Shown: positions 2,453-55,990 of the stretch, piece after piece
Position numbering within the stretch: the first letter of the stretch is position 1
Layout: every line of letters starts with the position of its first letter
From: a virus
Lineage: Duplodnaviria; Caudoviricetes
Reading direction: 5' to 3' (one strand)
Length of the DNA stretch: 64,000 bases
Virus record (IMG/VR): IMGVR_UViG_3300032295_001098
Location: 1 to 64,000 of that record
Position numbers and translations under genes: made by a program
The notes under the pieces: generated by a model
What the model was told of the DNA's origin: nothing
Seen by the model: the letters and a program-made list of their open reading frames with translations, nothing else
Databases searched by the model: none

Positions 2453-5400
2453 CTAACCTATTAAATAACCAGAAAAGTTGCTGTAATTACCGTCAGTGTA
2501 CATTACGCCAGCACCAGACTCATAACGAAGCGTTACATAGTCGTTAGCCGCTAAATAAATAACACCATAAGCGTAAGTTGACTGCCACCCAGCCGCATCT
2601 TTGAAAAAGATAAACCGCAACCCACCAACGCCACCGCCGTTTTTGTACAATGCATGTCTGTACTCGCCCGTGTTTCCGTTTTGTTGTAGACAATTATATG
2701 CAAACCAGTAAGAGCCAGCAATAGGTGCAGTAAATCTTCCGTTTGATGTGTTGTAACAACTACCAGCGTTTACGGTTGTAGTTGCAAATACAAGGTCTTG
2801 ACCAGCGCTTGCGGCGTTAACATTGTATGATGAGAACGATGGGTTATATGGAGTAGTCACCCAACCAGTGCTACTGGCATTTATTCTGTCAAGTCCAGCA
2901 GTTCTAAGACTTATCCCACCAGTATTATTAATCAGATAACTGTTAGTGTCGGTTGCATGACCTAATAGTAAAAAAGTATTATTAGTGCCAACTCCACGAT
3001 AAGCAGAACCACCAGTCCAATCACCTAGCCAAACATTACCGCTAGCATTTGTTGCCGTGATTCTTCCTGGACCAGCCACATCGCCTGTAAATGTTGGTGA
3101 TGCTGTCGGGGCTTTAGCATTCAACTGTGTCTGGATAGCAGAAGTGACTCCATCCACATAACCCAATTCAGTAGAAGTAATTGTGCCGATAGAAGTTGTT
3201 GAAGGAAGAACTACTGTTCCTGTAAACGTAGGCCCTGCTAATGGGGCTTTAGAATCCAACTGTGTTTGAATTGCCGAAGTTACTCCGTCTACATATCCGA
3301 TTTCGGTAGAGGTAACAGTTCCAATTGAGGTCGTAGAAGGGAGAACTACGGTTCCTGTAAAAGTAGGTCCTGCGGCTGGAGCATAAGTAGGGGTGATCCA
3401 CTCAACCCCATTTGTTGCGGAACTGTTTGCTTGTAGCAATTGACCGTTAGTACCAACTGCTTGGCGAGCCAATGTGTTATCGGCGGTTCCTAAAAGGAGA
3501 TCGCCTTTAGCGTCAACAAGGTTAAACACCGTGTTTGCGGCTACTGCACCTACTTCAATCCATGCTGAATCGTAATAAACGTAGGTACCACCTGTAGAAC
3601 TATTAAACCAAAGTTGTCCAGTTACAGGTGATGCTGGGGCGGCATCTGCGGCTATTGCCGCCATACCTGCCGCACCTACTTCTACCCAGAATGAGTCGTA
3701 GTAAGCAAAGGTTTGGGCAGTATCGGATTTAAACCAAAGTTGACCTTCAAGTGGTGTAGATGGGGCCGTTTCACTGACATACATCTTTGCTCCACCAGAT
3801 GTTCCACCGATTTCAACCCAGAACGAATCGTAGTAAACGTATGTTTTAGCGGTGCTGGAGTCAAACCAAATGCTTCCAGATTCTGGAGAAGATGGTGGAG
3901 TTGTAGAAGCAGTAACTGTAGATCCACCACTAGCCGCTGATGCGGCTGTCCATATAGAGCCGTTATATGTAAGGACATCTCCAGCGGAAGCGCCACTTGT
4001 ATTGACGTCATAAATATCGTCAAGAACAACACTTGCCATTGCTGTTGAGTGGTCAAGGGCGTTATGGCGAGCGTCGGTTAAGTACTGGGTATGGTCATCA
4101 TCTGCAAGACCCGTCATTGACCCGTGGTCAGATACTGGAGTTGATGGGATTGCACTGCCATTGGAGGACACACGGCGCAAGTCATAAATACCACGAATAG
4201 CGGCATTTACGGAGTTCGTGAATGAATCGGTTCCTTGGAATACAACCTTGTGCAGTGGGCGGAATTCAACAATTGGGAAGCCGTCAAGGTTGAGGTCTTC
4301 CCAGGCAGCGGCTTCTGCTTCACCAATAGTTAGATATTCATCTTGGCCCATGATTGCAATAACGGGTTCGTTTAGGTTATTTGTTGCAATAATCCATGAA
4401 ATCGCAAACTTATTATTAGCAATATCTACTGTTGACCAGTTCGGCGAAGAAAACAGGTTGTATTGAGGGCGAGATGTTCCCTGTTTAAATGCAAATTCTG
4501 TTGCAGTATCTTTTTTCCAATGATTGTTTGTTCTGTAAAATACTGGAATTTCAGCATTACCCTCAAGAACCTGCTCCCATGTATTTGCCGTAGGCGTATT
4601 TGAGTGCACAATATCAACTTGTAGGTCTTCATCAAAGAATGTTCCGCCAGCAAGGTCAAACTTGGCATGAGTATCCGACGAACCGTTGCCATCAATTGAA
4701 TAGTTTGAAACTCCAAAACCGTTGGCTATAGCCGCACCACGGGTTCTGTGGAGATACTCATGGGTTGCCCAGTCAAGCGTTATACCATGACGCTCATCAG
4801 CAAAGAAATACGCTTTGTTGTCTACTTCGTTCCAGTAGATGTAAGCAGTTGGAGCGTCTGTGTCCCAAACAAAATAACTGGTGCGATATGAGAGCACACC
4901 CGAGGAACTGAAGTAAATATAGTAGAGACCTGATGTATCAGGAATCTCAACAGTTTCCGTACCCGTTTTTACAAAACGCTTTCCAGCACACCATACGGTG
5001 TAAGAAGTAGATGCTGGAGCAATAGAGAATGTCCTAGTTCCTTCATTAAAGGAAATTACGCTGTCGTCTTTGTTCTCGTGACCCATCGGTTCATTTGATG
5101 GGCGAACTGTGTTAACCCAGTTTGTTCCGTTGTATACAAGTATTTGACCATTGGTTGCTGATGTAATGGTAACGTCAGTAAGACCATCAAGGTTGGTAGC
5201 ACCAACAGTTGAGGAAGCAACGTTTACCCATGCTGTTCCGTTCCACTGGATTAGATCACCGTTTGATGGAGAAGGTGCGGTTACGTTTCCAATGTCATCA
5301 AGTGTTGCAACGCCACCAGATGCACCTACTTCAACCCATGATGAGTCATAATAAACGTATGTCCTAGCATTAGAAGAATTAAACCAAAGGTCACCTACTT

Positions 5401-5767
5401 CTGGTGATGCAGGCGCTGTATCTGAAACAGTAAGTGAGGCACCACCTGATGCGGCAACATCTCCTGGAACAAACTTGACACCGTTAAAGACAAGTGCTTG
5501 AGTTGTTGTCGCACCTGTAGTGTCAATTTCAATGTTGTCTACAAACAGAGTTGGTGTTTTAAAAGTGTCGTCTGTTTGTAATACATCAGCAGATGCACGA
5601 TAAAGGTTTACGTCCCCAGCAGATGCGCCAGAACCCCAAGTAAGACGACCACCTGCCTCAACTTTTAGGCGAGAAAAGGTATCTTGGTCAACATAAACGG
5701 TGACAGCATCAGAACCAGCAGACGCAAGTTGCTTGACAGTAATAGGTACTGTAAATTTCTGTGCCAC
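2453..5767 (-). CDS. long tail fibre with C-terminal C1q/TNF-like domain
   Basis: 1104 aa; repeated GxLWFxSxxAxTYVYYDSxWVEVG modules; C-terminal NGRFTAPIAGSYWF...NFSGYLIG C1q-type signature. Confidence 0.75.
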   Translation of the reverse strand: MAQKFTVPITVKQLASAGSDAVTVYVDQDTFSRLKVEAGGRLTWGSGASAGDVNLYRASADVLQTDDTFKTPTLFVDNIEIDTTGATTTQALVFNGVKFVPGDVAASGGASLTVSDTAPASPEVGDLWFNSSNARTYVYYDSSWVEVGASGGVATLDDIGNVTAPSPSNGDLIQWNGTAWVNVASSTVGATNLDGLTDVTITSATNGQILVYNGTNWVNTVRPSNEPMGHENKDDSVISFNEGTRTFSIAPASTSYTVWCAGKRFVKTGTETVEIPDTSGLYYIYFSSSGVLSYRTSYFVWDTDAPTAYIYWNEVDNKAYFFADERHGITLDWATHEYLHRTRGAAIANGFGVSNYSIDGNGSSDTHAKFDLAGGTFFDEDLQVDIVHSNTPTANTWEQVLEGNAEIPVFYRTNNHWKKDTATEFAFKQGTSRPQYNLFSSPNWSTVDIANNKFAISWIIATNNLNEPVIAIMGQDEYLTIGEAEAAAWEDLNLDGFPIVEFRPLHKVVFQGTDSFTNSVNAAIRGIYDLRRVSSNGSAIPSTPVSDHGSMTGLADDDHTQYLTDARHNALDHSTAMASVVLDDIYDVNTSGASAGDVLTYNGSIWTAASAASGGSTVTASTTPPSSPESGSIWFDSSTAKTYVYYDSFWVEIGGTSGGAKMYVSETAPSTPLEGQLWFKSDTAQTFAYYDSFWVEVGAAGMAAIAADAAPASPVTGQLWFNSSTGGTYVYYDSAWIEVGAVAANTVFNLVDAKGDLLLGTADNTLARQAVGTNGQLLQANSSATNGVEWITPTYAPAAGPTFTGTVVLPSTTSIGTVTSTEIGYVDGVTSAIQTQLDSKAPLAGPTFTGTVVLPSTTSIGTITSTELGYVDGVTSAIQTQLNAKAPTASPTFTGDVAGPGRITATNASGNVWLGDWTGGSAYRGVGTNNTFLLLGHATDTNSYLINNTGGISLRTAGLDRINASSTGWVTTPYNPSFSSYNVNAASAGQDLVFATTTVNAGSCYNTSNGRFTAPIAGSYWFAYNCLQQNGNTGEYRHALYKNGGGVGGLRFIFFKDAAGWQSTYAYGVIYLAANDYVTLRYESGAGVMYTDGNYSNFSGYLIG
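3087..3383 (-). repeat. in-frame tandem duplication (45 codons x2 plus partial third) in tail fibre
   Basis: APxAGPTFTGTVVLPSTTSIGTxTSTExGYVDGVTSAIQTQL twice, then APTASPTFTG; ends approximate. Confidence 0.8.
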
Positions 5768-17981: not shown

Positions 17982-18355
17982 TAGTGATCCCTCGGATGGG
18001 TTACAGAATATGTTACAGGTATTTCGGTATCTGGGTTGATGTCATGTGCCGCTACGAGTCGGTGTTGACCATCCCATATTTGTGTACCGCCACCACGTTG
18101 GGCTGAGTGGAGCCGCAGGTGTACAGGGATTTTAACCCCTTCTTTTTTAATACTGTCGTAGAGACTGTCTTTGTACCCCCCATAAGGGTGTCCCTCTTTA
18201 GATTCTCGCAATTTCCTAGCACGGACATTAGGAGACTCAGTCATAGGAAGGTAACCTGAACTAGAGGTTTCTTCATCTCCTGCGGGGTATTTCATAATCT
18301 CCCGTGCAGGGAGAAACATGGACAGTTGACCACTGAGGTGCTCTTGTGCTGGCAT
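17981..18355 (-). CDS. stand-alone ParB/Sulfiredoxin-domain protein
   Basis: LYDSIKKEGVKIPV...IWDGQHRLVAA. Confidence 0.75.
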   Translation of the reverse strand: MPAQEHLSGQLSMFLPAREIMKYPAGDEETSSSGYLPMTESPNVRARKLRESKEGHPYGGYKDSLYDSIKKEGVKIPVHLRLHSAQRGGGTQIWDGQHRLVAAHDINPDTEIPVTYSVTHPRDH

Positions 18356-18371
18356 TTATCTAGTATAGATG

Positions 18372-18650
18372 TTAATTAAACCATGAGGAATACGTTTTTT
18401 GAGTATTCCTGCGGTTAGTAAAGCCGCCCCTGATGAGTTGACTTTTACCAAAACCGTCATCTGAAGACATATGCATGTCAACCATGCCTATGGCTTGATC
18501 ACGACCATCCTGCAACAGTTCTACAGGGTGTGTAGGAGTGCCTTCACCTGTCAACATCCCTGCATACCGTGTTGCCCAGTTCCGTGCATACGACTCTCTG
18601 AGCCGTGGATAAGGATGCTTCACCGAAAATTGTTCAGGGTTTAGCGACAT
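18372..18650 (-). CDS. hypothetical protein (MSLNPEQF)
   Basis: coupled ORF with shared tag. Confidence 0.55.
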   Translation of the reverse strand: MSLNPEQFSVKHPYPRLRESYARNWATRYAGMLTGEGTPTHPVELLQDGRDQAIGMVDMHMSSDDGFGKSQLIRGGFTNRRNTQKTYSSWFN

Positions 18651-18832
18651 CAGTCGTTGTCAGCCGCACGAGGGCGCTGTCTCAACCTCTCCTCTAGATC
18701 CCTGTCATAGAGTGATGAAGTGTTAGGTGTGAACCCTGACGCTTTACGCTGTTCTTTTAACTCTGCAAGGAGTGGGTGACCCCGACCAACTTTACGGTTA
18801 AGATTATGTGCTTCGTTTTTGCCTCGTGCCAT
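18650..18832 (-). CDS. small basic hypothetical protein
   Basis: TATACT-N6-ATG leaderless start. Confidence 0.55.
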   Translation of the reverse strand: MARGKNEAHNLNRKVGRGHPLLAELKEQRKASGFTPNTSSLYDRDLEERLRQRPRAADND

Positions 18833-18849
18833 TTATCTAGTATAGATGG

Positions 18850-19155
18850 TTACTTACGTGGGGTAATACGTGGAGGAAGTGGGTCACCCGTAGATTTAGC
18901 CCAAGCGTCGCCTTCTACAGTGCGAATTGGATTATGTTGGGGCGGTGCTACATCGTCAAATTGGGTAGAAATGTGCTGGGCATGACGGTACATTCCTGTA
19001 GCGATACCTTTCCTACGGTGGTTTTCTTCAACAAAGACATTTTCAATCTGTGGGTGCCACGATAAACGACCTACAACTTTGTTATCCTCTTTCGCAATGA
19101 CTTCATGTGGCACATCTTCGTCAGACGGGCCGTACTGAAAGGTGTACTCAGGCAT
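18850..19155 (-). CDS. GNAT acetyltransferase-like protein
   Basis: VFVEENHRRKGIATGMY motif A. Confidence 0.75.
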   Translation of the reverse strand: MPEYTFQYGPSDEDVPHEVIAKEDNKVVGRLSWHPQIENVFVEENHRRKGIATGMYRHAQHISTQFDDVAPPQHNPIRTVEGDAWAKSTGDPLPPRITPRK

Positions 19156-19292
19156 ATTTCAAGTATAGGGCTATTTGGGCGAGTTGGGTGGTCGGTCGGA
19201 TTTTTGGATGGGGCTATTGAGCCGTGGAGCATTGGGTGGGGCCTGTTGTCTACCCCCCGCCTCCGCTTGCCCCCTCACTTAACCATGGGGGG

Positions 19293-19392
19293 TTATCCAC
19301 AGCCCGCTCCATGCCCTGTATGGCTCTGCTGGGTTATCCACAGGTACCCCTGTGTACAGCCTGTGGATACTGTGGAACATCTCTGTGGAACA
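19293..19392. promoter_or_regulatory. DnaA-box cluster
   Basis: perfect TTATCCACA at 19293 and 19334; inverted near-matches at 19351, 19362, 19371, 19384. Confidence 0.7.
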
Positions 19393-19399
19393 TTGGGGG

Positions 19400-19413
19400 C
19401 GAACACCCGTTTG
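19400..19413. promoter_or_regulatory. LexA (SOS)-box-like site
   Basis: CGAAC-ACCC-GTTTG versus Gram-positive CGAAC-N4-GTTCG. Confidence 0.4.
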
Positions 19414-19478
19414 TGTGTCGTTCGTCACAGTGTGACCATCGTCACATGGATTGTTCCAATCGTGTGACATTCGTCACA
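19414..19478. promoter_or_regulatory. three CRP/GlxR-type sites
   Basis: TGTGT-cgttcg-TCACA 19414-19429, TGTGA-ccatcg-TCACA 19431-19446, TGTGA-cattcg-TCACA 19463-19478. Confidence 0.7.
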
Positions 19479-19959
19479 AACCCTTGACAACTCGCAATTG
19501 GCACGAGACGCACCACAATGCGTTCTCAGAGGAGGAGGGAGGGATGTAAGGGGTCAAGGCGGGCAGTGGTACAAAGTACCCTCAGAGAGGCTGTTGTGCG
19601 TCTACGAATGGGGCTATGAGCCTTGCTGGGTAAGGGTTTGCGGGGTATGGGTAGGTTACGAAGTACTCGCCACAGCGCCCCAATTGCTATCCACTGCACC
19701 ATCGCTCCATATCGGCACCTGCACGCACCACAGAGCCTCCTAGGCACCTCTCCTGCCATCCTGCGGTATTCATTGATTAATTGAATTCTCTGCCGATTCG
19801 CACCTGCATCTCCTCCATGCCTCCCTCTATCTCCTCCTCCATCCGATGGATGGCTGGTCGTTGGGGGCGCCCAATTCCAGCCCTGTCCCCGCCGTCCCGA
19901 GGCTCCAGCCCATACGGGGCATGGCTCAGAAGAATTCAGAAGAATTGTTTAATTGGGGG

Positions 19960-19989
19960 TTGACAGATGTACTCAATCCATGATTGAAT
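19960..19989 (+). promoter_or_regulatory. candidate early promoter
   Basis: TTGACA at 19960, 18 nt, TG-a-TTGAAT (imperfect -10). Confidence 0.35.
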
Positions 19990-20113
19990 TGGGGTGGAGG
20001 GGGATGCGTCCCCCGCCTCGGTTCCTTGACAAGTGGCAGGTACGGCACGCAGGCTTCGCCCTGCGCATTTTGCGTTCCTGCCCTCAGAATCAAACATGGT
20101 TCAAAATTCCTCA

Positions 20114-20204
20114 GCGTCACGGGCTGGCTTCGGCTGGCTCGTGGCGCTCAATGAGGGCTGGAGGCATTCCCCCTGCTTCAGCCCTGATTGAGCGCACAGC
20201 GCTC
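20114..20204 (+). ncRNA. triple overlapping-hairpin element B, copy 1
   Basis: GCGTCACGGGCTGGC-TTCG-GCTGGCTCGTGGCGC; long H2; GAGCGC-ACA-GCGCTC. Confidence 0.65.
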
Positions 20205-20244
20205 CATTGGCACACTGCCAATGCAGTCTTGAGGGAGACACACC

Positions 20245-20763
20245 ATGAAAGCAACACGACAGCAACTACTCAATCTCGGAGCCAGCATCCTGAGCACTGC
20301 CTACGAAGGCGGATCTTGCGGAATGGCTTCTTGGGCAGTTTCCAACGGCACCTACAAGTGGGGCACGGAGAAGGGCGAAGGCGAATTGCACGGCAACGAG
20401 CACTACGCATCAGTCACCGTGTACGACACCGAAGCGTGCGAGTTGGTGGAAGACGAAGCCGAGTTGGCAAAGTTGACCGATGACGATGGCTTTGGTGGTT
20501 GGGGCGGGTTCTACCGCTTCGGCAAGCCACTCGTGATCAATGAGTCCATCATTGCTGACTTCATTGAGAAGATCGGCACGGGTGAGTTCAATCAGGACAG
20601 CGTTCCTGACTACGGTCAATTGTCAATCAAGCGAGTGAGTGCCCTAGCAGGGTGCTACCTCTTCGGTGAGGACGCCATTGACGAATTTGAGTCCGACAAT
20701 GACTGCATCGTGTCTGACACCATCGTGCAGTTCATCCTGCTCGGTGAGGTCACATACGGCTGA
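20245..20763 (+). CDS. hypothetical early protein
   Basis: GAGGGAG SD; ends DTIVQFILLGEVTYG. Confidence 0.7.
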   Translation: MKATRQQLLNLGASILSTAYEGGSCGMASWAVSNGTYKWGTEKGEGELHGNEHYASVTVYDTEACELVEDEAELAKLTDDDGFGGWGGFYRFGKPLVINESIIADFIEKIGTGEFNQDSVPDYGQLSIKRVSALAGCYLFGEDAIDEFESDNDCIVSDTIVQFILLGEVTYG

Positions 20764-20766
20764 TCA

Positions 20767-20828
20767 TTCCCCCAGCGCCTAGGGCGTGCCCGTTCAATCG
20801 GGACTGGGGACTACTGGCACACGCCAGT
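20767..20828 (+). ncRNA. T-loop element A, copy 1
   Basis: CCCCAG[CGCC-TAG-GGCG]TG[CCCG-TTCAAT-CGGG]A-CTGGGG-ACT + ACTGGC/GCCAGT hairpin. Confidence 0.7.
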
Positions 20829-20851
20829 TACAACTGCCTAGAGGAGGCACC

Positions 20852-21109
20852 ATGGATACCACTACAGATGCAGTGCAGAACTACATCGCCACGAGACGGC
20901 GTGCACAGGAGGACATCATCGTGGGGCTGGTCAAACGGCTCAACGATGGATTCTCAGACATGGACGGCGCCGTGAGCAATCTAGGGCTGTTTCATCAGGC
21001 ACATCACATCTTCAAGTCACAGACCAACTGGATCGGTCAACTGGGCGAAGCATTCGCCAAGTACGAGTCACTGGCTTACCTTGAGGATGACTTCACGCCG
21101 AGTGAGTGA
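20852..21109 (+). CDS. hypothetical early protein
   Basis: CCTAGAGGAGG SD before ATG 20852. Confidence 0.65.
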   Translation: MDTTTDAVQNYIATRRRAQEDIIVGLVKRLNDGFSDMDGAVSNLGLFHQAHHIFKSQTNWIGQLGEAFAKYESLAYLEDDFTPSE

Positions 21110-21113
21110 GTGT

Positions 21114-21175
21114 TTCCCCCAGCGACTAGGTCGTGGCTCTTCAATGAGCACTGGGGACTGTGAGCAACCGCTCAC
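21114..21175 (+). ncRNA. T-loop element A, copy 2
   Basis: CCCCAG[CGAC-TAG-GTCG]TG[GCTC-TTCAAT-GAGC]A-CTGGGG-ACT + GTGAGC/GCTCAC hairpin. Confidence 0.7.
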
Positions 21176-21203
21176 TACAAATACCTTGAGGGAGGTATTC
21201 ACC

Positions 21204-21755
21204 ATGAAAACATCAGACATCAAGCAGATTCTTGCCAAGGATCCAAATGCAGTGTTTCTTGTCAGTCAACGGCACCGCACTTACTACGCCACAATCGTTG
21301 AAGTGGTGGAGCGTGAGGTGCCTGTGTATGACAACTACAGGCAGACGGGTACACGCACTTCGGTGTACTTCAATGTGCTCGGCTCGGTTTACAAGCACGG
21401 CATACAAGCCGACAAGTACCGAGAAGAGCGTGTGCCTTCGTACACCTTGGAGAAGAGTCACTGGATCAAGCCACGAGACATTCAGAGTCAGTTTGACTTC
21501 GGCACTGGTGAGACACTTCAACAGTGGATCGCCAATGAAGACCGTCAAATGAAGACTGACTGGCAAGCCAGCAAAGATGAAGAAACTGCGAAGTCGGATC
21601 AAGTGAAGGCAATCGTTCGCAAGATCAGTAGCCCGAAGGTCACCGACAGAGAATGGGACGAACTGAGTGATGAACTCAGCCGACTCAGTCTTCAGACACT
21701 GAAAACACTCAATGAGAAGATCAACCCGCAGATCGGTTTCGTACGATCAGCGTGA
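21204..21755 (+). CDS. hypothetical early protein
   Basis: GAGGGAGG SD before ATG 21204. Confidence 0.65.
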   Translation: MKTSDIKQILAKDPNAVFLVSQRHRTYYATIVEVVEREVPVYDNYRQTGTRTSVYFNVLGSVYKHGIQADKYREERVPSYTLEKSHWIKPRDIQSQFDFGTGETLQQWIANEDRQMKTDWQASKDEETAKSDQVKAIVRKISSPKVTDREWDELSDELSRLSLQTLKTLNEKINPQIGFVRSA

Positions 21756-21765
21756 GGTGAGCGAC

Positions 21766-21829
21766 TCCCCCGTGCACTTTAGGTGTGGCGTTCAATCGCA
21801 ACACGGGACTAGCGACATGCGAATGTCGT
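21766..21829 (+). ncRNA. T-loop element A, copy 3
   Basis: CCCGTG[CAC-TTTAG-GTG]TG[GCG-TTCAAT-CGC]AA-CACGGG-ACT + GCGACAT-GCGA-ATGTCGT. Confidence 0.7.
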
Positions 21830-21858
21830 GAATACAAATACCTAGAGGAGGTATAGCC

Positions 21859-22545
21859 ATGAATACAGAAGCAATCTACGACAAGGTGCAGGCAATCCTT
21901 GATCGTGCCAATCATCCGAACACGCCACAAGCGGAAGCCGAGACGGCTCTCGCCATGGCACAACGGCTCATGATGAAGCACGGTCTTGAAGAGTCCGCAT
22001 TCGCCAAGGCTCAAGATCGTGACGAGAACATCGTTACCGATCAGATCCCAATCAGTGGTCAATGGCAACTTCGCCGTCTCGGTCTTGCTGGTGCAATCGC
22101 TAGTGCCAACTCTGTTGCCAACTACCGCTCCAAATCGTGGGCGGATGGCAAGAAGTCGTTGGTGTTGGTGGTGTACGGCACTGCTGGTGACATCTTCGCT
22201 GTCAAGACACTGTTCGCATCGGCAGACTTGCTCGCTTCTCGTGTGATCCCAAAGGGTGATCGGTCATTCCGCAATGCGTGGTGGCTCGGATTCTCCTCGG
22301 GAGTGCGTGAGGTGTTGCGCAAGTCCAAGAACGAAGTGATCGCAGAGCAAGGTGTGGGCACTGGGTTAGTGCTCGCTGACAAGTTCAAGCGTGCAGACGC
22401 TGAGATGCGTTCAAAAGTCAAACTCAAGTCCAGTGGGTACTACAGGTACTCATCGGGTAACGGTTACAACGCTGGTCGTTCTGCTGGTCGTTCGTTCAAC
22501 ACTGGTGGCATCGGTAACGGTGTCGCTGGAGCGCTCGGACGATGA
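21859..22545 (+). CDS. DUF2786-domain protein
   Basis: KVQAILDRANHPNTPQAEAETALAMAQRLMMKHGL. Confidence 0.8.
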   Translation: MNTEAIYDKVQAILDRANHPNTPQAEAETALAMAQRLMMKHGLEESAFAKAQDRDENIVTDQIPISGQWQLRRLGLAGAIASANSVANYRSKSWADGKKSLVLVVYGTAGDIFAVKTLFASADLLASRVIPKGDRSFRNAWWLGFSSGVREVLRKSKNEVIAEQGVGTGLVLADKFKRADAEMRSKVKLKSSGYYRYSSGNGYNAGRSAGRSFNTGGIGNGVAGALGR

Positions 22546-42246: not shown

Positions 42247-43032
42247 TTACTTATACTTTGTGATGACAGGGTACCCAGTTAGTGGGCACATTTCTAAATC
42301 TGGCGATACTGGGCTGGTGTAACTGCGGACAAGCAAACGCTGAACCCAACGGTCGGTCCCGTCATAACTGGCTTGGAATGGCTTACGACCATGGACGGTG
42401 TTGGAGTTATCAATAATCAAAAGATCACCTCTAGTTAATGCTATTTCGTTAGTGTGCTTTTCTATTGCACGACCAAACTCTTCTAGAGCCTCTTGAGCCG
42501 CCACTGTAGTGCCACGCATGACGGACTTGTCGTAGCACATGGTGCTACGCCCATCCTTAACTCCTAATACAGAAGTTGTAACAACAGTGTCAGGTTCTCC
42601 GTTCGTCCTAAAACTGTCATCAACAGTTGTTTCAAATAGAGGCATTGACAACAGCGCAATACAAACATCATCTAACTCAGGCAAGATGTTTTGCAACTGC
42701 GCATAAGTTGTAAAGGCTTGTGGATCACCACGTAGGCACAGCAACATAATGTAGTCAGGCTTGTACGGGTGGAAGGCTGTCTCAGTATGGAGCGCCAAGG
42801 TTGTTTTAGATGACGAAGATATCTGTGAGTACTCAGTCTTTGGGTTGGGCACAACGTTTTGAATCAGTCTGCCGTTTTGTTCTTGTTTGTACCCTACTGG
42901 TACGCCAAGGTTCTTTGCGTAATGAAACAAGGTGTCACGAGCAATAGGACAAGTATCCTCGGATATGTGTGGTGTAATTGGGGTCGTTGGAATCGGACCA
43001 ACAGGAACGTCTTTAAATAGAACGATGGTCAT
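42247..43032 (-). CDS. TauD/clavaminate-synthase-like 2OG-Fe(II) dioxygenase
   Basis: LHTETAF, PDYIMLLCLR, GDLLIIDN..VHGR, RWVQR. Confidence 0.85.
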   Translation of the reverse strand: MTIVLFKDVPVGPIPTTPITPHISEDTCPIARDTLFHYAKNLGVPVGYKQEQNGRLIQNVVPNPKTEYSQISSSSKTTLALHTETAFHPYKPDYIMLLCLRGDPQAFTTYAQLQNILPELDDVCIALLSMPLFETTVDDSFRTNGEPDTVVTTSVLGVKDGRSTMCYDKSVMRGTTVAAQEALEEFGRAIEKHTNEIALTRGDLLIIDNSNTVHGRKPFQASYDGTDRWVQRLLVRSYTSPVSPDLEMCPLTGYPVITKYK

Positions 43033-51746: not shown

Positions 51747-52660
51747 TACATCCACCAAGGAAGCACTGATGCGTGCTTGATTGCATAATCTACTTCTGCG
51801 TCAGTCATGTCACCAATGTCTTTGGCGTCTGTCTTGCTGTAATCAAGGAAGAAGATACCGTCACGAAAACGTGGCAATGCTTTTAGCAAAGTCTTAGCGG
51901 ACTCAATTCCTGCTTTGTCGTTATCCATTGCAATGATCACTCGCTCTGCTGATTCAGAAAGCAAAGTCATTTGCTCGTGACTTACATGGGCACCAAATGT
52001 GGCGAGTGCTTGCATACCCCCGAATGATGATGCAAACCTCACCACATCTAGTGGTGACTCAACAAGCACAGCAGTCCTTGATTGAAAACGTTCAATACCA
52101 AAAAGAGTCCTGCTCTTCTTTATCCCAACTGGGTTGTTGTTGAAGTACTCAGGACCTTTTTCTTGCCATCCCATTAGTTCACCTAACGGAGAGACAATAG
52201 GAATTACCCATGCTTTCTTAAGCGTGTTCCATTTGATACCGTGCACTAGTGCAACGTCAGCGTCAAGGTGTCGCTTTACTAACTCTCTGTGAGGCACCTG
52301 TTCAAAGCGACTGTACGAAACCCAATCAACTTCTGGCTGGTACTCAACACGTTCTGGAGCAGTGAGACGATTGATACCTGTCTCAATCAACAACTGGTTA
52401 ACAGCCGAAACACTGTCAGGGTTACCTGTCAACTCTGAAACAAGACCAGCAAGTGTTCCACGAGCGCCACATGAGTGACAGATCCACAAACCGCTCTCTG
52501 CATTCATTGACCATGAAGGAGAACCATCTGCACGACCAGTGCGCTTCTCATGTACAGGACAGCATCCTGAAATCTCACGACCACTTGTTCGGCGTACATC
52601 TACGCCAAGTTCTATAAGAACATTAGAAAGATCAGTAGTACCAGTTGTCTGTGTCGCCAT
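51746..52660 (-). CDS. dnaG: DNA primase (CHC2 zinc finger + TOPRIM)
   Basis: CPVH...CHSC; VESPLD; MDNDKAG. Confidence 0.9.
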   Translation of the reverse strand: MATQTTGTTDLSNVLIELGVDVRRTSGREISGCCPVHEKRTGRADGSPSWSMNAESGLWICHSCGARGTLAGLVSELTGNPDSVSAVNQLLIETGINRLTAPERVEYQPEVDWVSYSRFEQVPHRELVKRHLDADVALVHGIKWNTLKKAWVIPIVSPLGELMGWQEKGPEYFNNNPVGIKKSRTLFGIERFQSRTAVLVESPLDVVRFASSFGGMQALATFGAHVSHEQMTLLSESAERVIIAMDNDKAGIESAKTLLKALPRFRDGIFFLDYSKTDAKDIGDMTDAEVDYAIKHASVLPWWM

Positions 52661-53888
52661 TGTCATTTTCATCAACCTCCGTAAAGTTCATATTTTCCCA
52701 ATCCCATTTAATTCTTACTTCACCCTTAGGTGATGACCGAGACAAGATAACTCTGATGATTGCTTGGTTATCTACGTCAGGATCTGATTCCACACCGAGC
52801 ACAAGGTCTGAGTCCTGTGCGAACGATGATGTGTAACCAATTGCTTCCGCCGTAATCTGTCGTGACTTCTTGTTTCCAAGTTTCCACGACAATACTTGTG
52901 TTGTCCCGATGATAGGGATATCAAAGCGCTGTGCCAACCTCTTAAGCGAGCGTGTGATATTTGTCAATGCTTGTGGTGAACCCTTTGGTTCTCCTTGCTC
53001 ATCGTCCATGAGGTATACACCGTCAACGATAAGCAAACGTGGTCGGTGTTGTTGCACCTTTCCAGCAAGTGCACTTACTGTTGTTAGAGAGTGCGTATCT
53101 TCGGTCATGATGAACGGGTGCATGTTCTTGCGAAGTTTCAGCGCTTTTGAAATACGCTCCATGTCTTGCGCAGTCAAATCACCTCGGATGATGCGTGTAT
53201 GTGGCACTCCTGAAATGATGGCGTCATAACGAGCCGCTTGCTCTTCAATACTCATTTCAAACGAAACATACATTGGCGTGATGCCGTGGCTGTGAGCCGC
53301 ATCAGCCATGATCAAGGTCATTAATGATTTACCTTTTTTCGCTTCACCAACGAATGTAACCAACTGCTGAGGCCGAAGACCAGCAGTGATCCGATCAAGA
53401 CCCAAGAAGCCTGTCGGAATGCCACGTAGACCGTTCGGGGTGTTACGCATTTCTTCATACTTTGCTAATCGTCCTTCCCATGATTCCATGAGGTCAATGT
53501 CTCGGAGTCGTGCAACTTCTACTGATGCCTTCTGTAGACCCTCGGAGAGTTTGTTAAAGGCTTCTTCAGTCTCGTTGTTATTAAGCGATGGGAGCGCAGA
53601 TGTAATTGCGCTGACCAAGTGCTGGTGTTTGTAAGCAATATAGATTTCGTCAATGAGCGCTTGAAATGGTTCGTTCTCAGCGTTGAGCAAACGTAGGTCT
53701 GCGTACTGTTGCTTGAACACACGAGCGCTTGGCACCACGCTGTATTCACGCCAGTAGTCAAGAACCCATAGCCAGATGTCAGACCATTCACCACTGAAGT
53801 GATCAGGGCGAAGTCCACCGTCAATGATCTCGCTGAGGTCAGCAGTCTGAATAACCTTGCTAATTAAGAGATGTTCAGTTGATGCCAT
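52632..53888 (-). CDS. dnaB: replicative DNA helicase
   Basis: GIPTGF, GEAKKGKS, SFEM, VDGVYLM, QDSDLV. Confidence 0.9.
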   Translation of the reverse strand: MASTEHLLISKVIQTADLSEIIDGGLRPDHFSGEWSDIWLWVLDYWREYSVVPSARVFKQQYADLRLLNAENEPFQALIDEIYIAYKHQHLVSAITSALPSLNNNETEEAFNKLSEGLQKASVEVARLRDIDLMESWEGRLAKYEEMRNTPNGLRGIPTGFLGLDRITAGLRPQQLVTFVGEAKKGKSLMTLIMADAAHSHGITPMYVSFEMSIEEQAARYDAIISGVPHTRIIRGDLTAQDMERISKALKLRKNMHPFIMTEDTHSLTTVSALAGKVQQHRPRLLIVDGVYLMDDEQGEPKGSPQALTNITRSLKRLAQRFDIPIIGTTQVLSWKLGNKKSRQITAEAIGYTSSFAQDSDLVLGVESDPDVDNQAIIRVILSRSSPKGEVRIKWDWENMNFTEVDENDNGDTDNWYY

Positions 53889-54328
53889 TAGAAAACCCAA
53901 GCGCTTGTAGGAGATGAAACTGTCGCACGAATACCAAGCGCAAATGCTTGTTCTTGGTGCGGGACGAAGATTGTACGGACAGATCTCTTGAAACGCAAGT
54001 CGTATTCAAGTTCTCCTACATTTTTATAATAGAGAACAGGAAGAGACATTCCTTTACGTTGTAGCCAGTTGTCTACTGCTTCAACTGCGTCTATTGCCAA
54101 GAAGGTGTACACCTCTGCACCAATACCTAAACGATGCGTTGTGTCATAGAGCGACTTCAACGGAAGGTCGTGTGGCTCCCACAAGTTAAGAACACGGTTC
54201 CAGTTGTTGCGTGCTTTGTACAACGAACTACCAATACCTTTAAACCCTCCAGGAGGAGAAGCAAGTAGTTCTTCAAAGATAACTCCGTATCCAACATCAT
54301 CGTATGACTGAATATCGTTACCGAACAT
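53888..54328 (-). CDS. hypothetical protein
   Basis: coupled ORF in the replication operon. Confidence 0.6.
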   Translation of the reverse strand: MFGNDIQSYDDVGYGVIFEELLASPPGGFKGIGSSLYKARNNWNRVLNLWEPHDLPLKSLYDTTHRLGIGAEVYTFLAIDAVEAVDNWLQRKGMSLPVLYYKNVGELEYDLRFKRSVRTIFVPHQEQAFALGIRATVSSPTSAWVF

Positions 54329-54960
54329 TAGTGCTCCAACCTGTAGTCAGCACCAGTTACTCCCATAATGAAACATGATTGTTTGATAATGGAATGCACT
54401 CGTGGACTGTACAGAGTTGGTAACTTGTCGGGGTTGATTTCTGTTGTAAAGATTGTTGGCAGTTGCATGTCGTAGCGAGACTCAATCATGCTTGACACAG
54501 TCTTGGACATATATTCAGTCAAGCGGTCTGCATTCAAGTTGTCAACAACAACGATGTCATAAATGCGGCGCATGTACTTAAGCAAGTTTGGATCGCCATA
54601 CATCTCAGGAAGTTCACCATCGTTGTTGCGTGAGTCGTGCACCATCTCAACAAAGATGTCGTAGGAGATAAACAAACCACTGAGTTCGTTCTTTGAAACA
54701 ACTTCACGCAAAGCGGATACCGCCATGTGTGTTTTACCAAGACCTGTCTTGCCATGGATATACAAACCCATGCCGTCTTCCATTCGCTTTTCAATATTGT
54801 TTGTCCACTTGATGACAGCATCTTTGAATGCAGGAGAACCTTCGTTCTCGTCATAGTTTGCAAACGTGCTGTTCTTGTAGCGAGGTGGTATGCGCAGGTT
54901 ACGAACCCGTTCTTCAACGGGGCGGTTGCGCCAGTACTTTGAACTCTTCCAGTCAGTCAT
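54328..54960 (-). CDS. DnaC/IstB-like AAA+ helicase loader
   Basis: IPPRY..TF.NY, GKTGLGKT, VVDNL, PTIFTT, GADYR. Confidence 0.85.
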   Translation of the reverse strand: MTDWKSSKYWRNRPVEERVRNLRIPPRYKNSTFANYDENEGSPAFKDAVIKWTNNIEKRMEDGMGLYIHGKTGLGKTHMAVSALREVVSKNELSGLFISYDIFVEMVHDSRNNDGELPEMYGDPNLLKYMRRIYDIVVVDNLNADRLTEYMSKTVSSMIESRYDMQLPTIFTTEINPDKLPTLYSPRVHSIIKQSCFIMGVTGADYRLEH

Positions 54961-55067
54961 GCTTTTCCATTTTGTGAGGGGGTAACGATGATACCGCACA
55001 CCTGTGGTCTAAAAACGTAACTGCATCTAAAAAGTAAAGATCACAGCAAATACAATGTATATACGAT

Positions 55068-55475
55068 CTACTCTTCGGTAAGTCTTGGGTCAATTGAGAT
55101 TGAGGTCGGCTGATCGTCTTCTTTGACATAGTTTTCCTTTGCGTATTTATCTAAGTTTGCTAAGAATGCTCTCCACGGCGCAACCTCCACTGGTAACGGT
55201 CTCCGTGTTATCTCTTTTACAAACGCCATGATCATGGCACGTATCTGGTCAGTTGTAAAGCCCTTGTCGGTGAGTTTCTTGAAACCCTTCATCAAGGCGG
55301 GACCATTCACTGGGGCGGTGATTCTGTCCAGCGTCTCGGTCGGGAGACTGTCACGGAAGAAGTACACCAAGTTACCTCGGGAGTCCTGTCGGGTCTGTTT
55401 TGGGGCGGGTTCTTTTTTGTCGGGGTCTTCACCTAAGCCGACGCCCCAGTCGTCAGAAAGTTTCTTCATCTTCAA
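55068..55475 (-). CDS. hypothetical protein (possible initiator partner)
   Basis: overlaps the initiator 3' end. Confidence 0.55.
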   Translation of the reverse strand: MKMKKLSDDWGVGLGEDPDKKEPAPKQTRQDSRGNLVYFFRDSLPTETLDRITAPVNGPALMKGFKKLTDKGFTTDQIRAMIMAFVKEITRRPLPVEVAPWRAFLANLDKYAKENYVKEDDQPTSISIDPRLTEE

Positions 55476-55938
55476 GCCTCTGATCTACTTGTGTTGAAAT
55501 TTTCCCTTTCTTGTTAAATTTACTCTTGTTATATACTCTTGATTGGGTGTCACCCGTGACACTACTAGTGGTGTCTCCCGTGACACTACCTAGTGTCTCC
55601 ATGGACACTACTAGGGGTGACTCGTGTGACACTACTGGGTTGTTAAAATTGACGTAATAACGGTTCGTCAAGTTCTTGTTGTTACGGGTCACACGGTGCT
55701 GTTTGACGATCAAGCCAATCTCTTCTAGGCGCTTCATGGAGCGGATTACGGTTCGGCGGTCACAGCCCAACTGGTCAGCAATGTGCTGGTAGGAGGTTGT
55801 CAGTTCCTGCGTATCTGGGTGAAGGTACTGAAGCATGTGGTTCAGTACTGCATGCGAGATGTAGTCCGTAGAGATGTATGGAAGCACCCATCTCGGGACA
55901 GGTAAAAAAGGTCCGCTCAACTTATTGTTTCGTGCCAT
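55453..55938 (-). CDS. HTH replication-initiator-like protein
   Basis: SYQHIADQLGCDRRTVIRSMKRLEEIGLI..NRY; GAGGAG SD before ATG 55938; internal iterons. Confidence 0.75.
   Translation of the reverse strand: MARNNKLSGPFLPVPRWVLPYISTDYISHAVLNHMLQYLHPDTQELTTSYQHIADQLGCDRRTVIRSMKRLEEIGLIVKQHRVTRNNKNLTNRYYVNFNNPVVSHESPLVVSMETLGSVTGDTTSSVTGDTQSRVYNKSKFNKKGKISTQVDQRLEDEETF
55547..55635. repeat. four palindromic iterons GTGWC-N6-GACAC-TAC (putative origin)
   Basis: starts at 55547, 55571, 55593, 55617; AT-rich tract at ~55495-55545. Confidence 0.75.
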
Positions 55939-55990
55939 ACTGCTCCTCAGGTTGTTATCTAGGGTCGCCATGCTACACTCTCGCTAGTCG

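Follow-up and report, generated by a model that had tools for sequence, protein, structure and literature searches.

Layout of the locus

We analysed the first 64 kb (64,000 nucleotides; hereafter the window) of IMG/VR virus record IMGVR_UViG_3300032295_001098, a 94,977-bp entry rated 99% complete, and in particular a closely packed array of DnaA-, LexA- and Crp-type sites at 19293–19489. The genome encodes sheath, tube, baseplate, portal and terminase proteins and is thus that of a contractile-tailed phage (myophage). Leftward genes occupy the stretches 94.9–31.4 kb and 19.2–0 kb, disregarding a few short or doubtful plus-strand open reading frames (ORFs) of the simple ORF call, and rightward genes occupy the stretch 20.2–31.4 kb. 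The rightward unit holds DUF2786, DUF6011, SNF2-helicase, DUF932 and WhiB genes. As the leftward block ends at 19155 and the rightward genes begin at 20245, the ORF-poor gap between them (19156–20244, 1.09 kb) is the only real point of transcription divergence in the genome. An earlier interpretation made from the letters alone (the sequence-only reading) had placed the array at a strand switch, and the array indeed lies inside this gap. Re-reading the window sequence and scanning it for motifs recovered every motif of that reading in place:

19293–19301 (+): DnaA box a, TTATCCACA, 9/9 match, within the 13-mer GGGTTATCCACAG; 9/9 positions invariant in eight variants
19334–19342 (+): DnaA box b, TTATCCACA, 9/9 match, within the second copy of GGGTTATCCACAG, 41 bp past box a; 9/9 invariant in eight variants
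19352–19360 (−): weak inverted DnaA-like box f, TGTGTACAG, three mismatches; relatives carry TGTGTATAT; 5/9 invariant
19362–19370 (−): inverted DnaA box c, TGTGGATAC (GTATCCACA on the minus strand), one mismatch, 8/9 match
19371–19379 (−): inverted DnaA-like box d, TGTGGAACA, two mismatches; 8/9 invariant
19384–19392 (−): inverted DnaA-like box e, TGTGGAACA, two mismatches; 9/9 invariant
19400–19413 (no strand): LexA/SOS-box-like palindrome, CGAACACCCGTTTG, CGAAC-ACCC-GTTTG, one mismatch to CGAAC-N4-GTTCG
19414–19429 (no strand): Crp-type palindrome 1, TGTGTCGTTCGTCACA, one mismatch to TGTGA-N6-TCACA; 12/16 invariant
19431–19446 (no strand): Crp-type palindrome 2, TGTGACCATCGTCACA, perfect TGTGA-N6-TCACA; 12/16 invariant
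19449–19461 (no strand): dyad GATTG-TTC-CAATC; relatives have TTGTTACAA there
19463–19478 (no strand): Crp-type palindrome 3, TGTGACATTCGTCACA, perfect TGTGA-N6-TCACA; in four of eight variants only
19484–19489 (+): TTGACA, possible −35 element of a rightward promoter; 6/6 invariant in eight variants

Boxes a and b are surrounded by an exact repeat, the 13-mer GGGTTATCCACAG, and boxes b and c form an inverted repeat (TATCCACAGG-N15-CCTGTGGATA). Measured from start to start, the DnaA boxes are 41, 28, 9 and 13 bp apart. Two of the boxes match at 9/9 and one at 8/9; boxes d and e do not fit the relaxed DnaA pattern TTWTNCACA. Palindromes 1 and 2 abut, with centres 17 bp apart here and 16 bp apart in most relatives. 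We considered the iteron-like junction between palindromes (GTCAC-N2/3-GTGAC) as the true binding unit and rejected it, since the junction varies between N2 and N3 while the N4 inside the palindromes is constant. A sigma-54 reading of TTGGCACGAGACGCA was likewise dropped because its GG/GC spacing is wrong and Actinobacteria are not known to have sigma-54.

The sites are concentrated in the array to different degrees. Perfect TGTGA-N6-TCACA sites occur twice in the 94,977-bp genome, both times in the array, which also holds five of the six genomic copies of CTGTGGAWM and three of the four copies of TCGTCACA. Not one of 200 dinucleotide shuffles of the genome reached three Crp-type sites (≤1 mismatch) per 210 bp, and nine of 200 reached three DnaA boxes (≤1 mismatch) in the same span. 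The close packing described in the sequence-only reading thus stands out from the rest of the genome for the Crp-type sites; for the DnaA boxes the clustering is modest, and there is no excess across the window (15 observed versus 17.2 expected). The genome contains three LexA-like sites (≤1 mismatch), including that of the array, and TTGACA is common by itself (103 copies).

Conservation of the array in related phages

Two protein-guided scans of IMG/VR yielded 21 loci. The whole gap is present in L005/L006 (the same as L019/L020), L007/L008, L009, L010, L012 and L013/L015, and part of it in L011, at 70–95% identity. It was not found in L014, L016, L017, L018 or L021–L025, among which L014, L016 and L023 gave short matches of 21–36 nt. 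The genes on either side differ among the gap-holding loci, and lake-metagenome contigs diverge precisely at the leftward ATG, so the gap appears to act as a conserved module within a mosaic.

To score site conservation, we aligned eight distinct variants. Every position of boxes a, b and e is invariant, as opposed to 40 of the 89 spacer positions between sites; box c scores low because two rows of the alignment are displaced by 1 nt. Four variants have a perfect LexA-like box at 19400, two (the window included) have it with one mismatch, and the remaining two lack it there but carry a perfect CGAAC-N4-GTTCG ∼140 bp upstream. Counting either position, a LexA-like box (≤1 mismatch) is kept in all eight variants and is perfect in six, a turnover that argues for selection on having the box. 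Conservation in related phages, on which the sequence-only reading had staked its array, is therefore found both as a footprint in the eight variants and as this turnover of the LexA-like box.

Beyond these variants, the control region has distant relatives in L319 and L344 (records G012 and G013). They retain the palindromes without the DnaA block, which consequently looks like an indel module. Relative G003 shares core genes at 65–75% nucleotide identity, yet it has no DNA-level match to window 19.2–34.8 kb. G+C content is ∼47% genome-wide; within this unmatched segment it is 51–57% up to ∼31 kb (the 19–31 kb segment), compared with ∼46% elsewhere. This suggests that control region and rightward operon form a module that can be exchanged.

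Recurrence in unrelated phages

Similar sites recur in phage contigs that cannot be aligned to the gap. Two GTTATCCACAG 11-mers (extended DnaA box) 20–40 nt apart are found in at least 120 IMG/VR viral contigs. Eighty of these loci (L041–L120) fall into ∼40 sequence clusters, none alignable to the gap, and hold 2–13 DnaA boxes each, mostly in ORF-poor gaps; endolysin, small and large terminase, helicase–primase and RusA genes are among their neighbours. An IMG/VR scan for abutting palindromes returned 86 stretches, mostly single chance matches, with nine relatives among them. Arrays of 2–9 TGTGAC-N4-GTCACA sites were present in ∼14 unalignable contigs, the array of G015 having nine palindromes. 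G014 (107 kb, 65% G+C) belongs to the same myovirus family (amino-acid identity of 58% for terminase, 59% for portal and 55% for capsid); a DUF6011 and SNF2 operon has a six-site array directly upstream of it, and of the 20 Crp-type sites in this genome, 19 fall within a 14-kb early region.

All three site types also occur together in G011 and G016, unrelated phages without BLAST alignment to this region. G016 has one mixed array and G011 has three within 2 kb, in which LexA and Crp boxes alternate edge to edge (7–8 Crp-type, 3 LexA and 5 DnaA sites per 250 bp). Globally, 70 IMG/VR stretches (L400–L469; 34 clusters; G+C 0.38–0.74) combine a perfect LexA box with a perfect GTGAC-N4-GTCAC at most 30 nt away, as against three for a composition-matched control pattern with the last half-site reversed, and 10 of the 70 also carry at least two DnaA boxes. 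Such mixed arrays in unrelated phages suggest that these phages read or disturb the physiological state of their hosts.

With regard to spacing, the fused form CGAAC-N4-GTTCG-N1-GTGAC-N4-GTCAC, with a gap of 1 nt, was the commonest (16 of 94 matches) and occurs in several unrelated contigs. The recurrent 1-nt gap suggests a fixed arrangement of two proteins.

Host regulators as candidate binders

We next relate the sites to the regulators of likely hosts. The genome contains two WhiB genes, a family that among 14 control genomes matched only in Corynebacterium, and the phage is on this ground taken to be actinobacterial. Near-identical DNA is present in lake and freshwater metagenomes of several studies; taken together, we read the window as DNA of a ∼95-kb freshwater/lake actinobacterial myophage. 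Direct searches for the host gave little: WhiB returned just 20-residue matches, to Saccharibacteria metagenome-assembled genomes (MAGs), and RecA one Gemmatimonadales match (52%). Megablast of 18000–22000 against the phage GenBank collection gave no match, and we detected no integrase or repressor gene and found no tRNA genes in the phage.

The palindromes agree with what is reported for actinobacterial Crp. The footprint consensus of Streptomyces coelicolor Crp is GTG(N)6GNCAC (PMC3520106). All three palindromes fit it, the phage palindrome being its perfect symmetrical form, and it explains the additional conserved C and G (positions 6 and 11) beyond TGTGA/TCACA. For LexA, the motif described in Streptomyces venezuelae is tCGAAC-N4-GNNCGa (PMC9380542). 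Crp-type helix-turn-helix (HTH) matches were obtained in all five actinobacterial genomes searched, above the family cut-off in just two; perfect TGTGA-N6-TCACA sites are rare in these genomes (0–2 each per 1–3.9 Mb). At least 121 bacterial stretches, including many from Actinobacteria, contain pairs of GTTATCCACAG 20–40 nt apart. Such pairs lie 0.5–0.8 kb downstream of a DnaA ATPase-domain match in both an Arthrobacter genome and a lake Microbacteriaceae MAG, although the true host of the phage may differ. The bacterial matches listed for the LexA+Crp pattern comprise 38/80 from Actinomycetota and 18/80 from Acidobacteriota, numbers that are normalised neither for composition nor for the make-up of the database and that we do not use as evidence.

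The phage itself appears to lack counterparts of these regulators. Six-frame searches of the phage detected neither a LexA DNA-binding domain nor a cNMP-binding domain, and the sole match in a DnaA-ATPase search was a DnaC-like loader, leaving no DnaA, LexA or Crp gene. The resemblance to DnaA, LexA and Crp consensus sequences claimed in the sequence-only reading has thus held up, through exact or near-exact matches, the footprint in relatives, the recurring grammar and the missing phage counterpart genes. Because the three matches are conserved, co-recur in unrelated phages and have no counterpart gene in the phage, host DnaA, LexA and Crp are the most economical binders, and we consider it probable that the sites of the array are binding sites for these three host proteins.

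The phage replication module as an alternative

The phage encodes a complete lambda-like replication module (an O-like initiator with iterons, a loader, DnaB, primase and PolA) as well as RecA. Three of its genes are located as follows:

52632–53900: DnaB, following the DnaC-like loader
54328–54999: DnaC-like loader, following the initiator gene
55453–55971 (−): O-like replication initiator gene, 172 aa, matching PHROG replication-initiation families

An iteron origin of the phage's own, far from the array, had been assumed in the sequence-only reading and was confirmed: the initiator gene contains 3.9 copies of a 24-bp iteron at 55546–55636. Each iteron is a near-palindrome (GTGTCAC-GG-GTGACAC), and the iterons encode the peptide repeat SVTGDT. 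The arrangement of initiator and iterons is conserved in G001, G002, G003 and G005.

The initiator became a candidate binder of the palindromes because its HTH most resembles Escherichia coli CAP, chains of which are its best sequence matches in the PDB (E 0.02–0.03). Its stretch GCDRRTVIR aligns to GCSRETVGR of CAP and keeps two arginines, which in CAP contact the G bases of TGTGA (PMC10187061). The palindromes, and perhaps the CTGTGGA repeats, could accordingly be operators for phage proteins such as this initiator, their likeness to host consensus sequences being coincidental. Furthermore, the iterons share the pentamer GTGAC/GTCAC with the palindromes, and tandem abutting palindromes are typical of repressor operators. 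In cluster A mycobacteriophages, stoperators form arrays of repressor operators, and the scattered sites of G014 recall them in that a single short site is repeated many times within the early region and near it. However, the palindromes match a host factor and no cognate phage repressor was found: no protein is common to all of G000, G011, G014, G015 and G016, the five array-bearing genomes compared, and around the 14 arrays examined we saw neither an adjoining HTH gene nor a common flanking family. Moreover, initiator and iterons are retained in G003 and G005, which have no array, and the initiator is absent from G014 and G015, which are complete and have one. The geometry also differs (GTG-N10-CAC in the iterons, GTG-N8-CAC in the palindromes), and three host-consensus matches that co-recur in unrelated phages are hard to call a coincidence. 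We therefore regard binding by phage proteins as clearly improbable.

The array could also be a second replication origin that depends on DnaA, used for the first round or in a plasmid mode, similar to oriR of P1 or to plasmids with DnaA boxes. Its DnaA boxes form two opposed sets, a layout resembling that of oriC, and it lies at the sole point of transcription divergence. In addition, an unrelated IMG/VR cluster (L061, L102, L113, L117 and L119) has the same layout, with two direct boxes (N30) and two to three inverted ones, followed by a long AT-rich run, and may plausibly contain an origin. E. coli oriC, datA and DARS are chromosomal clusters of DnaA boxes. The array shares with them mixed-affinity, opposed DnaA boxes within ∼100 bp; unlike them, it is carried by a phage and has no unwinding element adjoining the boxes. 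Indeed, the flanks of the boxes are G+C-rich, and the nearest AT-rich run (19765–19790) is ∼370 bp away and deleted in L007/L008. L319, L344 and G014 retain the remainder of the region but not the DnaA block. Together with the phage's own replication module, these observations disfavour the DnaA-dependent first-round origin put forward in the sequence-only reading, and we consider such a role very improbable.

A possible gate on early transcription

If host DnaA, LexA and Crp are the binders, the array could be a composite cis-regulatory module, that is, an early control region with multiple inputs that reads the state of the host; we give this an even chance. Four functions had been proposed in the sequence-only reading, and a sensor of host state for early transcription is the most parsimonious of them, the gating itself being our inference. 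A host-state gate is the best functional reading because the array heads the early operons. The array sits between a leftward early promoter, predicted to be leaderless, and the rightward transcription unit. Upon phage entry, host DnaA, LexA and Crp would occupy their sites and jointly set the strength at which the diverging early promoters fire. The start of infection could thereby be coupled to host replication or growth status, DNA damage, and cAMP or energy state. The outcome would be a delay-or-go gate in a phage of slow-growing, nutrient-poor hosts.

Several observations weigh against such a gate. Abutting palindromes 16–17 bp apart, up to nine of them elsewhere, resemble operator arrays or sinks rather than classical Crp-dependent promoters. 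LexA control of early genes would be unusual where, as here, neither an integrase nor a repressor is detected, and the LexA-like box of the window is mismatched at a conserved C (GTTTG) of the published Streptomyces motif. The DnaA cluster on its own is just modestly unusual, given the nine shuffles that reach it. Palindrome 3 is missing in four of the eight variants, and its distance to TTGACA ranges from 4 to 11 nt among relatives. A conserved −10 element 16–18 nt from the TTGACA at 19484 was sought in the window and its relatives and none was found; the promoter scan called no promoter there, and no convincing core promoter adjoins the array. As the distant relatives L319, L344 and G014 do without the DnaA block and G003 without the whole module, the array is dispensable for this phage family. 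Lastly, of ten array-bearing records from beyond the close family, among them many fragments, just five contain WhiB.

Some of these points could instead be explained by a sponge, the decoy of the sequence-only reading, in which the array controls no promoter and is a high-affinity sink that multiplies with the phage genome and draws off host DnaA, LexA and Crp. Host replication initiation would then be blocked, SOS genes would be switched on and carbon metabolism would be rewired. Chromosomal DnaA-box clusters such as datA and DARS titrate or modulate DnaA, which counts for this idea, as does the lack of a convincing core promoter beside the array. An unlikely explanation in our view, it stays alive because the sites are at or near perfect consensus (compared with the 0–2 perfect Crp-type sites per actinobacterial genome) and packed edge to edge, and because the very large arrays of G011 and G015 exceed the need of any promoter. 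On the other hand, there are few sites per genome here (5–6 DnaA, one LexA and three Crp). The array always heads early operons, for which a pure sink has no need, and the Crp-type sites of G014 are scattered over the early region much as in a regulon. It is similarly doubtful, with only a small chance in our estimate, that several unrelated actinophage lineages independently built DnaA/LexA/Crp ‘landing pads’ that act as amplifiable sponges.

Comparison with known systems

The sequence-only reading referred to DnaA boxes in the injection-stop region of phage T5, a statement that is in print (Davison 2020, bioRxiv 10.1101/866236). This preprint describes eight DnaA boxes in the T5 injection-stop signal (iss), arranged as pairs 3 bp apart in inverted repeats separated by 52 bp, within the terminal repeat. 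As proposed for T5, membrane-bound DnaA might hold the first-entering DNA at the boxes, so that the array would be an injection stop or, as suggested in the sequence-only reading, a ratchet. In the array as in the T5 iss, DnaA boxes of consensus and of variant form are conserved in a large phage of virulent type; they lie in an untranslated stretch that is long, conserved, rich in repeats and palindromes and far from the origin, and their function is hypothesised (10.1101/866236). DnaA-box clusters in other IMG/VR contigs furthermore often adjoin small-terminase or lysis genes, near module ends. Yet, going by the same source, the array differs from the iss in having two direct and three to four inverted boxes, not pairs spaced by 3 bp inside inverted repeats, as well as adjoining LexA- and Crp-type sites and a host from another phylum. 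The record is a linear sequence lacking end repeats, and the contigs of relatives start at differing places. An injection stop would also leave both the LexA and Crp sites and the loss of the DnaA block in relatives unexplained; it found no support here, and we consider it extremely improbable.

We return to the host-state gate, for which LexA- and Crp-controlled promoters are the closest precedents. In GIL01, CTXphi and coliphage 186, lytic genes are directly repressed by host LexA. The array resembles these cases in placing a host-type SOS box in a phage control region; it differs in that the box lies within a mixed array, often fused to a Crp site by 1 nt in other phages, and in that no integrase or repressor gene was detected in the phage. 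In Streptomyces venezuelae, a phage tail fibre gene is bound by LexA (PMC9380542). As at actinobacterial Crp/GlxR promoters, the site is a 16-bp palindrome that conforms to TGTGA-N6-TCACA as well as to GTG(N)6GNCAC (PMC3520106, PMC10187061). At those promoters there is a single imperfect site whose distance from the promoter is fixed, whereas the phages have two to nine abutting perfect sites.

Single types of host-factor sites are known from phages: certain temperate phages have LexA sites, and T5, lambda and P1 have DnaA boxes. What seems new here, as judged from the sites themselves, is the fusion of three host master-regulator site types in one conserved phage array. Our literature search returned no description of such composite arrays, and for phage DnaA-box clusters it returned a single passing mention besides the T5 preprint. 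Provided that the sites are bound, they would offer a handle on how phages of slow-growing, nutrient-poor bacteria time infection or disarm host regulation, and a sequence signature by which uncultured phages could be linked to actinobacterial hosts. Were the sponge true, three master regulators would be stripped from the small host cell at once, a takeover by DNA sequence without a takeover protein; chromosome initiation would be stopped, SOS fired and carbon metabolism reset as phage copies accumulate.

Other elements of the control region

The control region is layered, and the array is its first layer only. The remaining features of the gap are as follows:

19153–19167 (−): leftward early promoter, −10 element TATACT at 19162–19167, 6 nt upstream of the ATG at 19153–19155
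19960–19989 (+): candidate rightward promoter, TTGACA, 18 nt, TGA-TTGAAT (extended −10), proposed from the alignment
20048–20075 (+): terminator-like hairpin CGCAGG-CTTCGC-CCTGCG with a T-run, inside the leader
20107–20236 (+): structured 5′ leader of the first rightward gene (ATG at 20245), three hairpins within a closing helix

Because TATACT lies just 6 nt before the ATG, the leftward mRNA is predicted to be leaderless. This promoter is invariant in all relatives even though the gene behind it differs. In the window, the first leftward gene encodes a 101-aa GNAT-like protein, and this gene together with a 21-nt promoter motif (18827–19179) is 99% identical to G003 42550–42902, where the cassette has the opposite orientation and stands behind other genes; G003 is otherwise distant. 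By this identity, the GNAT-like gene with its putatively leaderless promoter is a recently exchanged cassette.

On the rightward side, relatives have TGG-AAGACT at the candidate promoter (19960–19989), which a strict promoter scan does not call. The stems of the hairpin at 20048–20075 covary among relatives, with changes on both sides in L007. A candidate promoter followed after ∼60 nt by a hairpin and T-run (19960–20075) could give rise to a short RNA or be an attenuator before the early operon. The closing helix of the leader pairs CCTCAG with the ribosome-binding site CTGAGGAGG. Across seven sequences, RNAalifold modelled 47 pairs in the 130-nt leader, of which nine have changes on both sides, ten on one side and four include a non-pair; the modelled fold of 20107–20236 looks like a translational switch. 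An Rfam scan of 19000–20400 (E ≤ 1) gave just three sub-threshold chance matches. A long-range pairing of 19309–19323 with 19910–19924 was rejected, as covariation in relatives does not support it.

The alignment of the gap further contains invariant blocks at 19607–19658, 19680–19745 and 19830–19870, the last of which encloses a perfect 13-bp palindrome (TCCATC-C-GATGGA, 19838–19850) that occurs once in the genome. A repeat, AT(A/G)GGGCTAT, is present in three direct copies (19165–19174, 19208–19217 and 19608–19617, plus strand), the first overlapping the leftward −10 element; these repeats are conserved in relatives, including the distant L319 and L344.

Outside the gap, a 1104-aa protein encoded at window 2453–5767 (−) has a C1q domain at its end (Pfam E 3.8e-14) and is probably a tail fibre. 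The rightward operon contains five copies of a translation-start motif, CCTAGAGGAGG, at 20837, 21841, 23093, 23542 and 26481 (+), four of which extend to GCCTAGAGGAGGCA and three to GGAGGCACCATG. In view of these start motifs, several GTG or TTG starts of the simple ORF list are probably placed too far upstream.

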